Below, piece after piece: positions 10,893-63,674 of a stretch of DNA of 64,000 nt. The stretch is from NCBI GenBank assembly GCA_018812925.1, contig JAHJCU010000008.1:70744-134743 (forward strand), given 5' to 3'. Under the pieces are notes generated by a model. It was given only the letters and a program-made list of their open reading frames with translations. It was not told the DNA's origin and made no database searches. Both the position numbers and the translations under genes were made by a program. Source of the stretch: Candidatus Omnitrophota bacterium (lineage in GTDB: Bacteria; CAIJMQ01). Positions within the stretch are counted from its first letter, which is position 1. Each line of letters begins with the position of its first letter.

Positions 10893-12956
10893 TCATTCCT
10901 TGGTTCTTCCGTTTTCTGTATTCTGTTCTCCGTTTTCTGTTGGCTGTTCCTTGTCTTCTGTATTCTGTGTTTTTTCAGACGGCAAATAAGAAGCAATCCA
11001 TCTGCATTGAGGATAGTTACTACATCCGTAGAATACCCTGCCTCTTTTATTTCTCATTTCTACTATTTCGCCGGAACAATTCTGATTTGGACACTTTACG
11101 CCGACTTTTTTCAATATTCGTTTTGTGTATCGGCACGTGGGGAAATTCAAACATGCTATAAACGGTCCGAATCTACCTTCTTTTATCATTAATTTCCCAT
11201 CGCATTCGGGGCATTTCTCGTCGGTAATTATTTCTCTTTCTTTTTTTATATTTTTCATATCCACCGATGCTTTATTCAAAACTGGTTCAAAAGACGTATA
11301 AAAATCTTTCACTATATCCGACCATTTTTTCTTGCCTTCTTCAACCTCATCGAGGCTTTGTTCCATTTCGGAAGTGAATTGTTCGTAAAATATTTTGGGG
11401 AAATTCTCAACAAGCAATTCAACCACAACTATACCAAGTTCCGAAGGATGAAGTGCACCTTTCACGCTTCTTATATAATCCCTGTCTTTAATAGTATTCA
11501 TTATCGGAGCATAAGTCGAAGGACGACCTATACCTTCTTCTTCCAATTTCCTGATAAGCGTTCCTTCACTGTAACGCTGAGGCGGTTGTGTAAATTTCTG
11601 CTCGAGATTAATATCTAATAAATTTACTTTTTCCTGTTCTTTTAAAATAGGCAACACATTTACTTCTTCCTCTTCTTTTTTAAAAAGAACTGTATAGCCA
11701 TCAAACTTTGTTTTTCTACTTTCGGTTGCAAATATATAATCTCCGCCTAATAGTTTTATAGTATTCACTTCTGTTATCTTTTGAGTCATTTGGGAACCTA
11801 AAAATCGGGTGTATATCAGTGTGTATATTTTTAATTGAAAAGGGTCTAAATATTCTTTTATTTTTTCAGGGGAAAGCTCAACATTCGTTGGGCGTATAGC
11901 TTCATGCGCTTCCTGAGCGCCCTTTTTTGCCTTGAATTTGGGGGGAGAAGAAGGAAGATATTCTTTGCCGAAATTTTTAAGTATCAATTCTCTCGCTTTA
12001 TCTTGAGCACTTTTACTAATATTAAAAGAATCTGTTCTCATGTAAGTAATAAGCCCCGTCAACTCATCTCCGACGTTAACACCTTCGTATAATTGCTGCG
12101 CTATTCTCATCGTCCTTTGAGCAGAAAATCTAAATATGCTGTGAGCTTGCTGTTGCAATGAACTTGTAATAAAAGGGGGAGGAGCATTTCTTTTTTCTTC
12201 TCTGGTAGTAATACTTTTTACAATAAAGTTTTGTTTTTCTATATCGGTTTTTATATCAAAAACTTCATCCTTAGGAAATTTTGTAATCTTTTTACCTTTA
12301 AATTCTTTAAGTTGAGAAGAAAATTCTTCATTGTTTTGCGTAGAAAATTTGCCAAGAACCAAATAATATTCTTCCGGAACAAATGCCTGTATTTCTTTTT
12401 CTCTATCCACAACGATTTTCAAAGCAACTGTTTGAACCCTACCCGCAGATAATCCTTTTCTTACTTTTTTCCACAACAAAGGTGAGATTTTATAACCTAC
12501 GAGTCGGTCCAGAACTCTCCTTGCCTTACCCGAATCAACTTTGTTTACATCTATTGCAGTAATATGTTCCAGTGATTCTTTGATAGCAGAAGAAGTAATT
12601 TCGTGAAACAAAATTCTGGAAATATTTTTATTAACAGGGCTTATTTCTTCAGCTAAATGGGCACAGATTGTTTCCCCTTCCCTATCAGCATCAGCCGCAA
12701 GAAGAACTTGTGAATATTTTTTAGCCTCGCTTTTTAGCTCTTTGAGGATTTTCTTTTTTCCTTTGATAACAGTATAAGTGGGTTCAAAATCATGCTCAAC
12801 ATCAACCCCTAATTTGCTATTCGGTAAATTTTTTATATGCCCCATGCTCGCGCTAACTTTATATCCTTTCCCAAGAAAAGATTGAATAGTTCGCGCCTTT
12901 GCAGGAGACTCAACAATTATAAGCGAATCTTTTATAAGCGACTTTTTCTTTGACAT
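10893..12956 (-). CDS. topA: DNA topoisomerase I with C-terminal zinc ribbons and a heptamer-encoded tail
   Basis: TOPRIM start LIIVESPAKARTI, active-site region ITYMRTDS, and Cys4 ribbons (CPECDG..C..C, CPNQNCSG). Confidence 0.95.
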   Translation of the reverse strand: MSKKKSLIKDSLIIVESPAKARTIQSFLGKGYKVSASMGHIKNLPNSKLGVDVEHDFEPTYTVIKGKKKILKELKSEAKKYSQVLLAADADREGETICAHLAEEISPVNKNISRILFHEITSSAIKESLEHITAIDVNKVDSGKARRVLDRLVGYKISPLLWKKVRKGLSAGRVQTVALKIVVDREKEIQAFVPEEYYLVLGKFSTQNNEEFSSQLKEFKGKKITKFPKDEVFDIKTDIEKQNFIVKSITTREEKRNAPPPFITSSLQQQAHSIFRFSAQRTMRIAQQLYEGVNVGDELTGLITYMRTDSFNISKSAQDKARELILKNFGKEYLPSSPPKFKAKKGAQEAHEAIRPTNVELSPEKIKEYLDPFQLKIYTLIYTRFLGSQMTQKITEVNTIKLLGGDYIFATESRKTKFDGYTVLFKKEEEEVNVLPILKEQEKVNLLDINLEQKFTQPPQRYSEGTLIRKLEEEGIGRPSTYAPIMNTIKDRDYIRSVKGALHPSELGIVVVELLVENFPKIFYEQFTSEMEQSLDEVEEGKKKWSDIVKDFYTSFEPVLNKASVDMKNIKKEREIITDEKCPECDGKLMIKEGRFGPFIACLNFPTCRYTKRILKKVGVKCPNQNCSGEIVEMRNKRGRVFYGCSNYPQCRWIASYLPSEKTQNTEDKEQPTENGEQNTENGRTKE
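10906..10975 (-). repeat. 10 tandem degenerate heptamers (sense ACAGAAN) encoding the topA C-terminal tail
   Basis: Plus strand reads cttccgt tttctgt attctgt tctccgt tttctgt tggctgt tccttgt cttctgt attctgt gtttttt. The encoded tail is KTQNTEDKEQPTENGEQNTENGRTKE. Confidence 0.85.
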
Positions 12957-13807: not shown

Positions 13808-14407
13808 TTATAGTGTTCCTTTAGTAGAAGGTATGCCTTTGGTTCTTGGATCTATTCTTGTAGCTTCATCCAAAGCTTTTCCCAATCCTTTAAAAATTGA
13901 TTCTGAAATATGATGAAAATCTTCCCCTTTTAAAATAGAAATATGTAAATTTAATCCGCCTCGCTGTGCAAAACTTTGCAAGAAATGTTTTAAATTCGGT
14001 CCGTCATATTTATCTTTTTCTAAAGGAGCAGGAAATTCTATTTTTTCGGAATCAAGATAAAATGAAGCCCTGCCACTAATATCAACAGCTACTCTAGTCA
14101 AAGCTTCGTCCATGGGAACAAAGGAAGAGCCAAATCTTTTAATCCCTTCCTTATTATTTAATGCTTCTGATAACGCATCTCCAAGACATAACCCTATATC
14201 TTCATTTGTATGATGTATGTCTACGTCTAAATCGCCACCGGCTTTCAATTCTAAATCAAAAAGTCCGTGTTTTGAAAAAAGTGTAAGCATGTGGTCTAAA
14301 AAAGGGATACCTGTAGAAATTTCAGATTTGCCTTCACCATCAATATTTAAAACAAGCGCGATTTTTGTTTCTTTTGTTTCTCTTTCTATTCTACCTATTC
14401 TTGCCAT
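13808..14407 (-). CDS. hisB: imidazoleglycerol-phosphate dehydratase
   Basis: ARIGRIERETKETKI and DIHHTNEDIG motifs. The start was set at the ATG preceded by GGAGGAG (the ORF extends to a TTG at 14443). Confidence 0.9.
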   Translation of the reverse strand: MARIGRIERETKETKIALVLNIDGEGKSEISTGIPFLDHMLTLFSKHGLFDLELKAGGDLDVDIHHTNEDIGLCLGDALSEALNNKEGIKRFGSSFVPMDEALTRVAVDISGRASFYLDSEKIEFPAPLEKDKYDGPNLKHFLQSFAQRGGLNLHISILKGEDFHHISESIFKGLGKALDEATRIDPRTKGIPSTKGTL

Positions 14408-14524
14408 TTCTCCTCCATTATCATCTACTGATTTTTTTATCAATTCCTATTTATCCCCAGAGAATCGGAGATTTTCGGGGACTTAATCCTCGGAATTTTC
14501 TCGAAATTCCAGAGGGCCAATTGC

Positions 14525-14550
14525 AAATTACAACTTACGAATTACTAATT
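14525..14550. repeat. TTAC/GTAA heptamer array abutting the tRNA-Pro 3' end
   Basis: aaattac aacttac gaattac taatt. Confidence 0.6.
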
Positions 14551-14551
14551 T

Positions 14552-14629
14552 TGGTCGGGGTGAGTGGATTCGAACCACCGACCTCTACGTCCCGAACGTA
14601 GCGCTCTAACCAAGCTAAGCCACACCCCG
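14552..14629 (-). tRNA. tRNA-Pro (CGG), CCA encoded
   Basis: Hand-folded: CGGGGTG acceptor, anticodon loop TTCGGGA, T-loop TTCGAAT, 3' ACCA. Confidence 0.93.
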
Positions 14630-14836
14630 TAGAAAAATTAAATATCAAATATCAAAAATCAAAAATAAACTAACAAAAATACTCGCAAAGCTAAACTCTC
14701 TTTTCTTTAATCTCTGTAATCTTTCTTTGAAATCCATGTAATCAGTGTTCCAATTATAGAAGTTTATTGTTTGCTTCTCAACTATATGAATTATGGGTTG
14801 ACTAAAGATAAAGAGATTTGATATAAGAATCTCAAG

Positions 14837-16960: not shown

Positions 16961-17070
16961 GCCCGTATCGGTTAATTTACGTAACCCGTAACTCGTAATT
17001 GGTAATTTTTAAAATTACGGATTACGATTTACAGATTACCGATTACGAAAAAATGGGCATCGTAACCTTA
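16961..17070. repeat. GTAA/TTAC heptamer-periodic inverted array (long imperfect hairpin)
   Basis: cgtaacc cgtaact cgtaatt ggtaatt ttt aaaattac ggattac gatttac agattac cgattac. Confidence 0.8.
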
Positions 17071-17613: not shown

Positions 17614-17696
17614 AGCGAGTTATAATCAAATATCGTCTTTAGTCGTTGCGAGATAGATTCCTCTCCCTTGTTCTTGTGAGCAAATATAGTGAGTAC

Positions 17697-17715
17697 GGCA
17701 ATCTATGAGATTGCC
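17697..17715. repeat. perfect 8-bp hairpin GGCAATCT-ATG-AGATTGCC
   Basis: Read directly. The stem resembles hairpin 3 of the 65-nt element. Confidence 0.7.
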
Positions 17716-17747
17716 TGTCCGCTTCTTGCAGAAACAAGCAGGCGGAC
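17714..17747. repeat. GC-rich palindromic element copy with a long loop (CCTGTCCG-N18-CAGGCGGAC)
   Basis: Arms match the family consensus with 1-2 changes. Confidence 0.7.
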
Positions 17748-17767
17748 TTCGTCGTTTTCACTCCTCG

Positions 17768-17832
17768 CCCCTAGAAATTGCGAATGCAATTTCAGGGACC
17801 AAAGTCCCGGAAATCCTATGGATTTCATGGGG
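17768..17832 (-). repeat. 65-nt three-hairpin element, copy 3 (divergent)
   Basis: Minus-strand read: CCCC AT [GAAATCC ATA GGATTTC] C [GGGAC TTTG GTCCC] T [GAAATTGC ATTC GCAATTTC] TA GGGG. Lies 46 nt after the uvrC stop. Confidence 0.8.
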
Positions 17833-21196: not shown

Positions 21197-21347
21197 AGGG
21201 TTCGATTATTATGCTAACATATCTATTGTTCTGTCTCAATATATCATATATCCAGAAATTGTCTTTGACAAAGCCCCATTAGAAATAAAGCTATGACATT
21301 AAATCGCTTATGGAAAAATATAGTACAAATAAGAATTGAAAATCCCC

Positions 21348-21362
21348 AAATTTCTAACGGGG
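21348..21362 (+). promoter_or_regulatory. 15-mer AAATTTCTAACGGGG upstream of mtnA (identical 15-mer upstream of cysE)
   Basis: Exact match to the complement of 46610-46624. Lies 38 nt before the mtnA ATG. Confidence 0.4.
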
Positions 21363-21400
21363 TAAATTTATGATAAAATGTGAAACTTGGAGAAACTAAA

Positions 21401-24300: not shown

Positions 24301-24378
24301 TATCGTGATTGGTAACTGGTAAAGCGTAATTTTTTAAAATTACCATTTACGAATTACTATTTACGGATTACGGTTTTC
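24301..24378. repeat. GTAA/TTAC heptamer-periodic hairpin (the 'empty' version without the 65-nt element)
   Basis: ttggtaa ctggtaa agcgtaa tttttt aaaattac catttac gaattac tatttac ggattac. Confidence 0.85.
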
Positions 24379-25074: not shown

Positions 25075-25158
25075 ATAGTAAAGCGTTTTTACATATTCTC
25101 TCCCTAACACCACATAAAAACCTCAAGCAAAAACCTCTAAATTAAGCTATAATATTAA

Positions 25159-25326
25159 CCGTAATTGGTAACTCGTAAAGCGCCCCGTGGAATCTAAAAG
25201 ATTCCCGGGACCAAAGTCCTTGAGATTGTTCATCAATCTCTAAGGGTAATTCGTAACTTTTTTTAATTACCAATTACCATTTACGGATTGCTGTTTACCA
25301 TTTTCGTAATTAGTAATTACGAAAAT
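25159..25326. repeat. GTAA/TTAC heptamer-periodic hairpin carrying the 65-nt element in its left arm
   Basis: cgtaattggtaactcgtaaagc [65 nt] gtaattcgtaac ttttttt aattaccaattaccatttacgg... Confidence 0.8.
25182..25246 (+). repeat. 65-nt three-hairpin element, copy 1
   Basis: GCCCC GT [GGAATCT AAA AGATTCC] C [GGGAC CAAA GTCC] TT [GAGATTG TTCAT CAATCTC] TAA GGG. Confidence 0.85.
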
Positions 25327-25399
25327 GCCGAGATAGCTCAGTTGGTAGAGCAGGGCATTCGTAATGCTCAGGTCGCCAGTTCGACTCTGGCTCTCGGCT
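25327..25399 (+). tRNA. tRNA-Thr (CGT)
   Basis: Hand-folded: GCCGAGA acceptor, anticodon loop TTCGTAA, T-loop TTCGACT. Confidence 0.93.
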
Positions 25400-26790: not shown

Positions 26791-26862
26791 GTAAGTTGTA
26801 AGTCTTAAGTTATAAGTTACAAGTTTATACTTACTACTTACAACCTAAAACTTAGAACTAGT
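26791..26862. repeat. TAAGTT/AACTTA heptamer-periodic hairpin after cinA
   Basis: gtaagtt gtaagtc ttaagtt ataagtt acaagtt tatactt actactt acaacct aaaactt agaac. Confidence 0.8.
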
Positions 26863-29012: not shown

Positions 29013-29013
29013 A

Positions 29014-29085
29014 TCGGTTTGCGGTATTCGGTTATCGGTTATCGCGAAAACCGACAACCGTTTTTTTCTTTTCCGATAACCATTA
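29014..29085. repeat. CGGTTAT/CGAAAAC heptamer-periodic hairpin, copy 1
   Basis: cggtttg cggtatt cggttat cggttat cg cgaaaa ccgacaaccg ... ccgataacc. Confidence 0.8.
29029..29067 (+). terminator. intrinsic terminator of rplI
   Basis: CGGTTATCGG - 12-nt loop - CCGACAACCG (9/10 bp) followed by TTTTTTT. Confidence 0.7.
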
Positions 29086-34442: not shown

Positions 34443-35543
34443 ATGAAAAAATTAATTCTGCCCACGCACCAGTATCACCATTACCACAATGGCAAACGAT
34501 GTGGGGTTTCGCCACAATATAAAACAACACATAAAAAAACACTGTGTATCTTAAACCTTGTGGCTACACTTTTACTGCTTCCTATCATCCTATTAGGATT
34601 TGGATTCTCTAAAAAGACATATCTTCTTATGGGAACTTTTGTGGAAATAACTCTTCCGCAGAAAAACAACAAAGTCATCAATGAAACCTTAGAAGCAATG
34701 CATGCACTGGAAGATGAGCTAAGCATTTATAATAAGGAAAGCCAAATAAACCGCATAAATTCTCTGAAAAAAGACAACCTGCAGAAAACTTCTCCCGAAG
34801 TTTATGAAGTTATCCAAAAAGCCATTTATTTCAGTAAACTGACAAACGGCGCCTTTGACATAACGGTTTCCCCTCTTCTTAAACTCTGGGATTTTGAAGG
34901 AGGAGAATTAAAAGAAATACCATCACAGGAAAAAATAGACGAAGCGCTAAGAAATATCGGCTGGCAAAACCTAATATTTACTAAAGACGGGAAAATTGGT
35001 TTTGCAAAAGATAATATGAGCATAAACCTCGGCGGAATTGCAAAAGGGTATATTGTGGATAAGGCTATATCCTATTTAAATGCAAAAGGAATAAAATCAG
35101 CACTCATAAATGCGGGAGGAGATGTTTATTGTCTCGGCGAAAAAGAAAATGGGGAATCTTGGAATGTCGGCATACGTCATCCAAGAAAAAAGAAGGGAGT
35201 TATAGGAATATTAAAACTAAAAAATAAAGCAGTAGCCACTTCAGGCGATTACGAAAAATTTTTCACTTTGAAAGGAAAAAAGTTTTGTCATATAATTAAC
35301 CCTCAAACTGGCTATCCTGTAGATAGCGCCATAATTCAAGTCACAGTAGTTGCGGAAACTTGCATCGATGCAGACGCGTTGGCAACGGCTTTAATGGTTA
35401 TGGGAAAAGAAAAAGGAATAGAATTGATAGAAAAACTCGCCAATACCGAGGTCGTTATAATAGAGGAAAAGGAAGGAAAACTCGATATAAGTTATACTAA
35501 AGGGTTGGAAGAAATTATTGAAATAAACAAGGGTAATTGGTAA
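34443..35543 (+). CDS. apbE: FAD:protein FMN transferase (ApbE family)
   Basis: MGTFVEITL, GAFDITVSPL, GGIAKGY, SGDYEK and DALATA motifs. N-terminal TM/anchor. The last codons (GNW*) lie inside the GTAA repeat. Confidence 0.88.
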   Translation: MKKLILPTHQYHHYHNGKRCGVSPQYKTTHKKTLCILNLVATLLLLPIILLGFGFSKKTYLLMGTFVEITLPQKNNKVINETLEAMHALEDELSIYNKESQINRINSLKKDNLQKTSPEVYEVIQKAIYFSKLTNGAFDITVSPLLKLWDFEGGELKEIPSQEKIDEALRNIGWQNLIFTKDGKIGFAKDNMSINLGGIAKGYIVDKAISYLNAKGIKSALINAGGDVYCLGEKENGESWNVGIRHPRKKKGVIGILKLKNKAVATSGDYEKFFTLKGKKFCHIINPQTGYPVDSAIIQVTVVAETCIDADALATALMVMGKEKGIELIEKLANTEVVIIEEKEGKLDISYTKGLEEIIEINKGNW

Positions 35544-35738
35544 CTTGTAAATTGCCCCGTGGAATCTACAAGATTCCCGGGACCAAAGTCCTTGAGATTG
35601 CTCAGCAATCTCTAAGGGTAATCCGTAATTTTTCTATTGTTAGTTATTTGTTTATTACTATTTATGAATTACTGATTACTGTTTACGATTCTTGAATTAC
35701 CATTTACCAATTACTATTTACGCTTTACGATAAATACT
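35531..35738. repeat. GTAA/TTAC heptamer-periodic array carrying the 65-nt element
   Basis: gggtaattggtaacttgtaaatt [65 nt] gtaatccgtaattttt ... gaattac tgattac tgtttac gattctt gaattac catttac caattac tatttac gctttac. Confidence 0.8.
35554..35618 (+). repeat. 65-nt three-hairpin element, copy 2
   Basis: Differs from copy 1 at only three positions, all in or closing the hairpin loops. Lies 11 nt after the apbE stop. Confidence 0.85.
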
Positions 35739-38360: not shown

Positions 38361-38424
38361 ACGGTTATAGGTTATCGGTTATCGTAAAAAAACGAAAACC
38401 GAATACCGAAAACCGCTAACCGAT
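38361..38424. repeat. CGGTTAT/CGAAAAC heptamer-periodic hairpin, copy 2 (ribD-ribE spacer)
   Basis: cggttat aggttat cggttat cg taaaaaaa cgaaaac cgaatac cgaaaac cgctaac cg. Confidence 0.8.
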
Positions 38425-40863: not shown

Positions 40864-41310
40864 ATGAGCTCAAGACGAAAAGCAAGAGAATTGGCTTTGA
40901 AGGTTCTTTATCAGAATGATTCTATGCCCCATGATGGGACAGAACCACTTTCTACTTGGAAAGACACATTCAAGTATCTGACTGATATTATGGATATTGA
41001 TAAAGAAGAGAAGAAGTTTGCAAAAGAACTGGTAGAAGGAACTTTAAAAAACATTGAGTTGATTGATCCCAAAATCTCCGAATTTTCTAAACATTGGAAA
41101 ATCTCGAGAATTTCCGTAGTTGACCGAAACATTATGCGTATTGCCTGTTACGAGATGCTATTTTCAGAAAAAGTCCCCCATGCAGTATCTATCGACGAAG
41201 CAATAGAGCTAAGCAAAAAATATTCTGCAACAGAAAGTAAATCATTCATAAACGGCGTTTTGGATGGGATATGTAAGGACTTACAAAAAAAATCAAAAAT
41301 AAAAAATTAA
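40864..41310 (+). CDS. nusB: transcription antitermination factor NusB
   Basis: SRRKARELALKVLYQ start and a DRNIMRIACYE motif. Confidence 0.9.
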   Translation: MSSRRKARELALKVLYQNDSMPHDGTEPLSTWKDTFKYLTDIMDIDKEEKKFAKELVEGTLKNIELIDPKISEFSKHWKISRISVVDRNIMRIACYEMLFSEKVPHAVSIDEAIELSKKYSATESKSFINGVLDGICKDLQKKSKIKN

Positions 41311-41350
41311 AATGTAAAATGACAAATTAAAATTCAAAATTTTACATTTT
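41309..41350. repeat. AT-rich 12-bp hairpin AAAATGTAAAAT / ATTTTACATTTT built from heptamer words, nusB-mutS spacer
   Basis: Read directly. Confidence 0.6.
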
Positions 41351-62218: not shown

Positions 62219-63674
62219 TAAGTTATCCCCCCTTGATTCTGCTCATTGCATTCGCAAAATCAAAACAGGGGGGACGGCACCGAAAGTTTTCATTCAAACT
62301 TTCGGGTGCCAGATGAATAAATACGACTCAGAGATTATGAAGTCGCTTCTCTTACAAGAAGGATATGAATTTACCGACAATTGGCAAAAGGCAGATGTAA
62401 TACTGGTTAATACCTGTAGTGTAAGACAACATGCGGAAGAAAGGGTATATGCGCATTTATGGAAATGGAGCAGATATAAGCAAGAATCAAAACCCAATTT
62501 GATAATCGGTATATGCGGATGTATGGCGCAGAAAGAAGGAATAAATATTCTAAACAAAATACCTCATTTAAATCTTGTATGCGGAACTTACAGTATTCCT
62601 AAAATTCATGAATTTGTAAGGGATTTACTTAAAACCGGCGGCAGGCGCATTGAAACTTCAGAAGATTACACTGATTTCCCTGCGCCTATTTATGAGATAA
62701 GAGACAGCAAAATTTCTGCGTGGGTGGCAATTATGAGGGGATGTAATAACTATTGCGCCTATTGTGTCGTGCCGTATGTCAGAGGTAAAGAAATAAGCCG
62801 TCCTGTAGAAGAAATAGAAACGGAAATCAAGGAACTTGCCCGCAAAGGCATAAAAGAAGTAACGCTTTTGGGGCAGAATGTTAACTCATACGCATCTCAG
62901 AAGACAGAAAACAGAAGACAGAGGACAGAAAAAAATAAAAATGATTTTGCACACTTGCTGAAAAGAATAAATGACATAAAGGGGATTGAACGGATAAGAT
63001 TCACAACTTCGCATCCGAAAGACATGTCTATCGTTACTATTGAAGCTATAAGAGATTTGCCAAAAGTTTGCGAGCATATTCATCTGGCATTACAGTCTGG
63101 TTCCGACAGGATTTTGAAACTGATGAATAGAAAATATACAAGGAGCCAGTATAAAGAGCTTGTTGACAGAATCAGAGCGACTATTCCAGATGTAAGCATT
63201 ACTACCGACATAATGGTTGGATTTCCTACCGAAACCAAAGATGACTTTATGGATACTTATAATCTTGTCAAAGAAATAGGATTTGATGCGTCTTATATAT
63301 TCAAATATTCGACAAGACCCGGAACAAAAGCCGCCGATATGGAAGATGATATACCTGAAGAAATAAAAAAAGAACGACTCAACAAGCTTCTTTCTCTTCA
63401 AAAAAGAATAGTACAGAAGAAAAACGAAAAATTAATCGGTAAAGAAGTTGAAATCCTCGTTGAGGGAATTAATAAAAGAGGAAGTAAATTGTTAAGTGAA
63501 ACCACGTGCATTTCCGAACCCGACGGAGTTCGGAAATGTTACGTGGGGAAGACTCGTAATTTCAAGTATGTCTCTTTCCAAAGCGATAAAAACTTAATCG
63601 GAAAACTGGTAAAAGTGAAGGTTGTAAAAGTAAGAGGTGGGTTGTTTGAGGGAATTTTAGTTGACAAAAGTTGA
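62202..63674 (+). CDS. miaB: tRNA-i6A37 methylthiotransferase
   Basis: FIQTFGCQMN, radical SAM CNNYCAYCVVP, and a TRAM domain C-terminus. Confidence 0.93.
   Translation: MKKQNSKLSPLDSAHCIRKIKTGGTAPKVFIQTFGCQMNKYDSEIMKSLLLQEGYEFTDNWQKADVILVNTCSVRQHAEERVYAHLWKWSRYKQESKPNLIIGICGCMAQKEGINILNKIPHLNLVCGTYSIPKIHEFVRDLLKTGGRRIETSEDYTDFPAPIYEIRDSKISAWVAIMRGCNNYCAYCVVPYVRGKEISRPVEEIETEIKELARKGIKEVTLLGQNVNSYASQKTENRRQRTEKNKNDFAHLLKRINDIKGIERIRFTTSHPKDMSIVTIEAIRDLPKVCEHIHLALQSGSDRILKLMNRKYTRSQYKELVDRIRATIPDVSITTDIMVGFPTETKDDFMDTYNLVKEIGFDASYIFKYSTRPGTKAADMEDDIPEEIKKERLNKLLSLQKRIVQKKNEKLIGKEVEILVEGINKRGSKLLSETTCISEPDGVRKCYVGKTRNFKYVSFQSDKNLIGKLVKVKVVKVRGGLFEGILVDKS
62227..62273. repeat. GC-clamped inverted repeat CCCCCCTTGATT - 19 nt - AATCAA(aaca)GGGGGG in the miaB N-terminal extension
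   Basis: Read directly. Encodes part of SPLDSAHCIRKIKTGG, upstream of the conserved FGCQMN start region. Confidence 0.75.
62898..62932 (+). repeat. five tandem heptamers (CAGAAGA CAGAAAA CAGAAGA CAGAGGA CAGAAAA) inside miaB
   Basis: Same ACAGAAN word as the topA tail. Encodes QKTENRRQRTEK. Confidence 0.85.

Follow-up and report, generated by a model that had tools for sequence, protein, structure and literature searches.

In IS608, the left end of the element is joined 3' of a tetranucleotide in single-stranded DNA (ssDNA), folded hairpins are needed and no target duplication results; its geometry involves a guide tetranucleotide and cleavage sites that lie 19 and 10 nt from the foot of the hairpin. 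REP sequences are bulged imperfect palindromes of 20-50 nt, immediately preceded on the 5' side by GTAG (or CGTC), that occur as inverted doublets (for the REPIN concept, see PMC3116915), are cleaved by TnpA-REP on ssDNA and typically flank a RAYT/tnpA-REP gene. Here we describe a 64-bp repeat from a 64,000-nucleotide stretch of a Candidatus Omnitrophota bacterium genome (GenBank assembly GCA_018812925.1, contig JAHJCU010000008.1, positions 70,744 to 134,743, forward strand), hereafter the window. It had been picked out in an initial annotation as a structured element in three copies, and is most plausibly miniature selfish DNA of a type not previously described rather than a regulatory RNA. 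The initial finding is real and more widespread than first thought; its reading shifts from an RNA of 3' untranslated regions (3'-UTRs) to mobile DNA.

The likeness to REP, BIME and REPIN sequences extends to several features. The halves of the element are bulged imperfect palindromes set inverted to one another across a short linker; it is multi-copy, mostly intergenic and non-autonomous, with a structure kept by compensation; and the unit that moves is always the doublet, as seen both from the boundaries of inserted units and from full-length matches on both strands to R1, a covariance model built on the two-hairpin structure described below. It differs from them in having no GTAG or CGTC (the consensus starts C-CCCG and the 5' flank is TTTG), in that its halves do not pair mutually into one long hairpin, in entering hairpin loops with a preference for TTTG^CA (the caret marks the point of insertion), and in its hosts, which are Firestonebacteria, Omnitrophota, Planctomycetota and similar metagenome-assembled genomes (MAGs) and not Proteobacteria. 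Like the palindrome-associated transposable elements (PATEs) of the IS200/IS605 family, it inserts without target-site duplication, appears to do so strand-specifically and next to a short favoured sequence that lies 5' of it, and has hairpins at both ends as its main recognisable features. Unlike those of PATEs, however, its hairpins are terminal rather than subterminal, so that at the left end a 5' guide tetranucleotide would have no space; its target preference reaches the 3' side, and no GC-skew bias was detected. PATEs are also typically much larger than 64 bp.

The small dispersed repeats SDR1-8 of heterocystous cyanobacteria, described by Elhai et al. in 2008, are reportedly 21-27 nt long and lie in tandem heptamer arrays; copies reportedly nest in copies, the hairpin is reportedly kept by compensatory mutations, no mobiliser is known to have been named, and spread through an RNA intermediate has reportedly been proposed for such cyanobacterial repeats. 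With these repeats our element shares the heptamer arrays, the nesting and the compensated hairpin, but it is 63-65 nt long, has two hairpins and a different sequence, lives in non-cyanobacterial hosts, and the evidence set out below speaks against an RNA intermediate. Miniature inverted-repeat transposable elements (MITEs) such as Correia/CREE, RUP, ERIC and Nezha are likewise short, non-autonomous and intergenic with inverted-repeat termini (here CCCCGAGAAAT / ATTTCTAAGGG), whereas our element duplicates no target site, is much shorter and aims at hairpin loops. Integron attC sites resemble it as folded imperfect palindromes with extrahelical bases that follow genes, but have one hairpin rather than two; an attC assignment was rejected, as the consensus of 89 copies contains no GTTRRRY/RYYYAAC boxes and the neighbours are housekeeping genes, with no cassette array or integrase nearby. 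Because a defining feature of each named family fails (GTAG for REPs, the ends for IS200/IS605, size and hosts for SDRs, duplication for MITEs), we file the element only as a miniature, non-autonomous palindromic mobile DNA, a familiar class within which a limited literature search found no prior description of this family.

Two hairpins kept by Watson-Crick compensation

The initial annotation had folded the element into a four-way architecture, with a CCCC/GGG(G) closing stem around three hairpins. We counted pairs for this structure and for a two-hairpin alternative over an alignment of 89 distinct copies. In the two-hairpin structure 97.9% of cells are paired, with 13 covarying pairs and 261 double-change cells; none of 500 shuffles matches its values for pairing and covariation, and slid controls collapse. 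The C and G runs of the supposed closing and central stems instead lengthen hairpins 1 and 3, each by 4 bp, and these two hairpins are themselves strongly backed by covariation. Of the added pairs, 4-29 is CG in 69 copies, UA in 17 and AU in 1; 5-28 is GC in 70, CG in 9 and UA in 1; 42-69 is UA in 59 and CG in 29; and 43-68 is UA in 62, GC in 15 and CG in 8. In the four-way structure, by contrast, the closing pair 4-69 is unpaired in 60 of the 89 copies, and the central GGGAC/GTCC helix, which the initial annotation took for an invariant stem, never covaries, its outer pair being G·U in 56 copies and unpaired in 17. RNAalifold, unprompted, predicts the two-hairpin fold and not the four-way one. 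Minimum free energy structures are of the two-hairpin kind in 74 copies and of the four-way kind in 9 with RNA parameters (83 and 2 with DNA parameters), and the minimum-energy fold of copies 1 and 2 is two long hairpins. Covariation, RNAalifold and folding energies together led us to reject the four-way junction.

The element is made up of two bulged hairpins of 11-12 bp, the second an inverted counterpart of the first, each half being an imperfect palindrome of 26-28 nt with one bulged base. They run from position 2 to position 63 of 64, i.e. 1 nt off each end, within a unit of 63-65 bp whose boundaries are exactly CCCC...GGG(G). In the AC-YWWR-GT linker between them, the A, C, G and T are each kept in more than 90% of copies and do not covary. 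The central loop of copy 3, TTTG against CAAA, was considered as an invertible segment and dismissed, as it is ordinary YWWR loop variation across the family. Compensation in the stems is strictly Watson-Crick on both strands. Of 2038 paired cells, 1985 hold Watson-Crick pairs, 11 G·T or T·G and 19 A·C or C·A; with G·T no commoner than A·C, the nominal strand shows no excess of wobble pairs. Compared with shuffles, the window copies fold with z = -4.9 to -5.7, and the opposite strand folds equally well. R1 matches every copy on both strands; copies 1-3 of the window score 80-85 bits on one strand (E about 1e-22, far beyond chance) and 54-59 bits on the other.

What the initial annotation had said of hairpins 1 and 3 is borne out. 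Of 64 positions, only 3 distinguish copy 1 from copy 2, all of them in loops or at loop edges, and the paired substitutions that it listed in hairpins 1 and 3 of copy 3 are seen in the alignment on the - strand. Its positions for the copies were also right, save that the leading G at which it began is flank. Elsewhere in the family some copies have a much longer hairpin (L012 135-222, L021, L023 and L100 7251-7333, where L-numbers denote fetched loci that carry or are related to the element); the L012 stem has 19 bp, and hairpin 1 of L100 contains an extra stem-loop of 20 nt, so that the arms can evidently grow yet remain paired.

Insertion into hairpin loops and heptamer arrays

Insertion of the element is precise, makes no target duplication and has an orientation fixed relative to the target. 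Pairs of empty and filled sites came from a flank-joining search, whereas nested copies were revealed when every copy was removed in turn and the rejoined flanks were searched again. L144 and L093, with flanks that are 99% identical, differ by an extra 63-nt copy: in L144 it interrupts a resident copy within the hairpin loop TCTTT^CAGATTTC, and in L093 the resident copy is uninterrupted. In L115 a copy occupies the loop of an unrelated hairpin with an 8-bp stem (GAGGAGCC GG^AGACT GGCTCCTC), which is empty in L081, and in L055 a palindromic repeat, TTGTTTGC-TTATG^CAAACAA, is present in filled and empty versions. The insert in all three pairs is exactly CCCC...GGG(G). Seven non-redundant copies are nested in other copies, six of them in the hairpin loop and five after a G, and all seven are oriented as the host copy (two-sided p about 0.016). 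No target-site duplication is found at any of these 10 resolved insertions (three empty/filled pairs and seven nested copies).

The flanks have the consensus TTTG^...^CA(A/C)A, biased on the 3' side as well as the 5' side. TTTG fills positions -4 to -1 exactly in 30 of 112 copies, and at least three of the four bases match in 63 of 112; a left TTTG tends to go together with a right CAAA (odds ratio 4.9, p = 2e-4), an association that is expected if the targets are themselves palindromes. The element prefers TTTG^CAAA-like sites within or next to the loops of DNA hairpins, whether these belong to its own copies, to other palindromes or to inverted heptamer arrays; most insertions are into loops of this sort or into the hairpins of heptamer arrays. 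Another family of repeats, REP-like and palindromic (CCCCCATTGTTTGCTTATGCAAACAAGCATTGGGGGG), is found at L055 1440-1600 and 1100-1320 and at L133 1384-1706; it hosts the 15 sequence-identical element copies that are spread over many contigs, and in L133 three composite units of element and palindrome stand in tandem, ~130 nt apart.

Heptamer arrays serve as targets in the window, where, as in five related loci, the element interrupts (GTAAnnn)n at G^TAA and the array is seamless on its removal. This is so of the region around copy 1 (Table 1), which without the element is an unbroken GTAAnnn array and as a whole folds into a long hairpin. All seven Firestone-type copies are placed alike, at G^TAA on the GTAA strand and one or two heptamers 5' of an apical GTAATTTT...AAAATTAC hairpin. 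Two inverted arrays of the window that hold no element also form long hairpins with the GTAATTTT...AAAATTAC apex, like the host sites of copies 1 and 2, and the first of them, at 16981, could be such a target that has stayed unoccupied. Tandem heptamer arrays are present in many intergenic spacers of this genome (TTCTGTT x9, AAAAATC, TAAGTTA, ATCGGTT, AAAACCG, AAAAATT x8, CAGAAGA; among them 10907-10968, 14633-14681, 26792-26825, 29013-29044, 38388-38423, 41288-41341 and 62898-62930), and those of the window resemble the STRR (short tandemly repeated repetitive) sequences of cyanobacteria.

That the element is mobile we hold with high confidence. A structured mobile element was the last-named option of the initial annotation, and it is the one that empty/filled pairs, nesting, breaks in assemblies and diverse hosts now uphold. 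High conservation of the core and ends across diverse hosts might instead be expected of a host-function DNA site, bound by a nucleoid protein, gyrase or a replication protein, inherited vertically, immobile and needed in many copies, and similar roles have been credited to REP/BIME sequences. We find this very hard to credit, given that presence of the element is polymorphic between 99%-identical backgrounds, that copies lie inside copies, that identical copies occur at many loci of one community and that genomic context is not conserved among the sites where copies lie.

Strand, transcripts and the route of movement

According to the initial annotation, the element always lies in sense 3' of a coding sequence and may act at the RNA level, as a 3'-UTR stabiliser, a processing site or a small RNA (sRNA). 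Selection on such a transcript would suit the strong folding and rich compensatory change, the nearly always intergenic position (125 of 139 copies are outside open reading frames (ORFs) of at least 100 aa) and the sense placement downstream of a gene of three window copies, or four if copy 4 is on the - strand; REP hairpins, too, are reported to act on expression, both transcriptionally and post-transcriptionally. Across the family, however, copies between two same-strand ORFs are 30 sense and 31 antisense, a balance that holds at every cut-off of orientation confidence (21 against 22 at high confidence), and the uniform sense pattern of the window is put down to small sample. Convergent spacers hold 14 copies and divergent, promoter-side ones 12, near the background spacer mix of the same loci, and the closest relatives of the window copies include two in divergent spacers and two antisense. 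The strand-specific selection expected of a cis-acting 3'-UTR element or an sRNA is therefore not seen in either gene orientation or G·T pairing, and G·U is not favoured over A·C. No U-tract follows the element on either strand, positions +1 to +12 being A-rich on both strands of the family, and on the same grounds (a hairpin without a following U-tract, A-rich 3' flanks on both strands) an intrinsic terminator was rejected. The suspicion that this is no described RNA family has proved correct: Rfam 15 at its gathering threshold finds only four tRNAs in the whole window, and its E-value mode returns only noise on 25100-25330. Furthermore, copies that insert into one another behave as parasites and not as a regulatory element. 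A lack of orientation bias relative to genes had been named beforehand as evidence against an RNA role, and a lack of bias is what the family shows. We accordingly regard a structured RNA under transcript-level selection as unlikely. RNA function is at most secondary, and any effects of the 3' hairpins on neighbouring transcripts would be a by-product; the covariation of such an element can be mistaken for that of a structured RNA.

RNA might still be the vehicle of spread, with a transcript that reverse-splices or retro-inserts into hairpin loops. The strand is fixed relative to the target in 7/7 nested and 7/7 heptamer-array copies and no target is duplicated, as such a route would have it, but it also predicts co-orientation of copies with genes, which is not observed. 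A G·U signature is lacking, the flanks examined contain no recurrent reverse transcriptase, and no mechanism is known by which a 64-nt RNA that lacks a recognisable ribozyme core could do so; an RNA intermediate thus appears improbable.

The account that we favour, and consider on balance probable, is that of a non-autonomous mobile DNA element, REP/BIME/REPIN-like or akin to an IS200-derived PATE, that is probably moved as ssDNA by an enzyme acting in trans. Its hairpins would be recognised as folded ssDNA by that enzyme, for which an HUH/Y1-type transposase (RAYT or IS200/IS605 TnpA-like) performing one-strand cut-and-paste would be the likeliest candidate, and the AC-YWWR-GT linker and the C/G ends may be determinants of protein contact or cleavage. 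The ssDNA/HUH route, which is suggested by analogy with IS608 and REP/BIME, is more tentative, and we would give it somewhat less than an even chance.

A number of observations weigh against this account. The tetranucleotide that defines REPs, GTAG or CGTC, is absent at both ends, and hairpins that start 1 nt from the ends do not fit the IS608 geometry. Clustering of 786 flanking ORFs all against all, with Pfam scans of the 13 recurrent clusters, revealed no recurrent transposase of any kind in ~870 kb of flanking DNA, nor is there a transposase in the 84 kb formed by the window and 10 kb on each side; Y1/RAYT, tnpA and tnpB genes, in particular, were not seen near copies in either set. With respect to local GC skew, a weak proxy for the replication strand, copies divide 26 to 30, where an IS200/IS605-type element would be expected to be oriented by the lagging-strand template. 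For none of the four window copies could a clean empty site be recovered; in the case of copy 1, udg orthologues of 69-96% identity have different downstream genes. (In one case, L172 3051-3151, the contig encodes a UDG 96% identical to that of the window, and udg is followed by no copy but by a SocA_Panacea-type gene; the end of the L172 contig is a complex, apparently nested cluster of copies.) The phylum labels of the hosts depend on MAG binning of short contigs. Finally, the near-palindromic target and pseudo-twofold symmetry of the element would also suit a dimeric enzyme that acts on double-stranded DNA (dsDNA).

Such an enzyme, either a homing-type nuclease or a recombinase, would read the GGGAC-N4-GTCC core and TTTG^CAAA, and both the conserved, non-covarying core and the association of left TTTG with right CAAA agree with this, although the palindromy of the flanks may merely reflect hairpin targets. 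All recurrent clusters of flanking ORFs are housekeeping families save one, HNH_3+AP2, whose members (~200 aa) lie 32-980 nt from copies in five independent loci (L046, L125, L101, L111/L113 and L139); the ORF of L046 (3822-4664) is bracketed by two copies, which lie 32 nt before and 50 nt after it. Yet the element is absent from 20 loci with close HNH-AP2 homologues, which represent two distinct Sedimentisphaerales sites, and neither the window nor its flanks contain an HNH-AP2 gene, so that HNH-AP2 has been dropped as the mobiliser except as a weak rival. (At those Sedimentisphaerales sites the placement of the homologues, upstream of an HMGL-like gene, is conserved.) A symmetric mechanism, moreover, predicts neither the fixed orientation of 7/7 nested inserts nor the strict compensation of intra-strand hairpins, and we attach a low probability to movement or copying as dsDNA. 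The 84-kb region also contains one ORF of the tyrosine recombinase family (Phage_integrase, PF00589), beside a topoisomerase I gene and probably of the XerC/D type, and one small GIY-YIG protein.

It is conceivable, if doubtful, that the element and its heptamer arrays are products of one novel system that targets hairpin loops and is not of the classical RAYT/IS200 kind, with an enzyme that may be host-encoded or widely transferred and may be shared with the cyanobacterial SDR and STRR repeats.

Window copies, family and hosts

A covariance-model scan, a check that had been proposed, recovers in the window all three copies and a fourth, strongly diverged one (Table 1). Copies 1-3 follow genes assigned by Pfam to UDG, ApbE and UvrC, at distances from the upstream stops (108, 11 and 45-46 nt) that agree with those first given. 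Beyond copy 2 the next ORF, which from the appearance of its N-terminus we take to be rnfC, begins 120 nt downstream. Copy 3 stands in the spacer between convergent uvrC and nitroreductase-family ORFs, and directly 3' of it, between these genes, lie two more G+C-rich hairpins (17690-17760, - strand), GTCCGC...GCGGAC and GGCAATCT-CAT-AGATTGCC; the latter looks like the hairpin-3 arm of the element, and R1 gives it only ~8 bits.

Copy 4 keeps both extended hairpins (CCCC/GGGG with GAGAATC/GATTTTC, and CCTC/GAGG with GGAATTT/AAATTCC) and lies between a tRNA-Pro gene (14552-14629, - strand) and an ORF at 13808-14443 (- strand). The model slightly favours the + strand for it, whereas the heptamers around it, with G^TA on the GTAA strand, point to the - strand. 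GC skew in the window changes sign at ~21200-21400, with long ORFs on the - strand to the left and on the + strand to the right, which could be a replication origin or a mere strand switch; the copies of clear strand match the gene strand on their own side of it.

Table 1. Element copies and heptamer arrays in the window. Bits are R1 scores; the caret marks the insertion point.
Feature	Position	Strand	Description
Copy 1, 64 nt	25183-25246	+	82.2 bits on +, 57.9 on -
Copy 1, hairpin A	25184-25209	+	CCCG/CGGG base, bulged T, GGAATCT/AGATTCC
Copy 1, linker	25210-25217	+	ACCAAAGT
Copy 1, hairpin B	25218-25245	+	CCTT/AAGG base, GAGATTG/CAATCTC, bulged T
Copy 1, host array	25161-25298	+	(GTAAnnn)3 G^[element]^TAATTC GTAAC T-run (nnnTTAC)n
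Copy 2	35555-35618	+	61/64 identical to copy 1; 84.7 bits
Copy 2, host array	35533-35728	+	GTAATTG GTAACTT GTAAATT G^[element]^TAATCC GTAATTT ... (nnnTTAC)n
Copy 3, diverged, 65 nt	17768-17832	-	80.0 bits on -, 59.0 on +
Copy 4, strongly diverged	14454-14516	ambiguous	56.6 bits on + (E 6e-15), 50.5 on -
GTAAnnn array directly beside copy 4	14519-14550	-	
Inverted array without element	16981-17046		(GTAAnnn)n/(nnnTTAC)n hairpin
Second inverted array without element	24305-24378		GTAAnnn hairpin

Beyond the window, a scan for the exact pattern in one genome per species (GTDB MAGs) gave 13 true copies in MAGs with seven different labels, which include Firestonebacteria, Omnitrophota, Ratteibacteria, 'Spirochaetes' and unclassified bacteria. 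A looser pattern found at least 117 metagenome loci, and profile searches of the fetched DNA about 175-180 non-overlapping copies, of which 126 are full length and 92 distinct; the 15 sequence-identical copies mentioned above come from many loci within one community. Host loci range in GC from 31 to 53%, and one encodes a protein assigned by NCBI to Sedimentisphaerales. The viral contigs that were scanned gave no match, and extension of the window contig by 10 kb on each side added no further copies. The MAG from which the window comes is assigned to Candidatus Firestonebacteria. L011 is identical to the window over copy 1 and its flanks, and several further assemblies of the same organism stop ~136 nt past the udg stop, i.e. 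inside the element, as is typical of a dispersed repeat; in practical terms, the element breaks short-read assemblies.

To our knowledge, almost nothing has been reported on the mobile elements of these groups, which are known only from MAGs. The element provides a family of ultra-small mobile DNA, defined by sequence and open to searching, in Firestonebacteria, Omnitrophota, Sedimentisphaerales and other such lineages, with unusually clean behaviour: exact ends, no duplication, hairpin-loop targets and an orientation fixed by the target. As the family spans many genomes, phylogenetic profiling could reveal the enzyme, and naming it could also explain the tiny repeats in heptamer arrays, a question that has stood since the cyanobacterial SDRs. 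Should a single hairpin-loop-targeting system prove to be responsible, the element would rank with the smallest pieces of mobile DNA that look autonomous, and would be active in several bacterial phyla.

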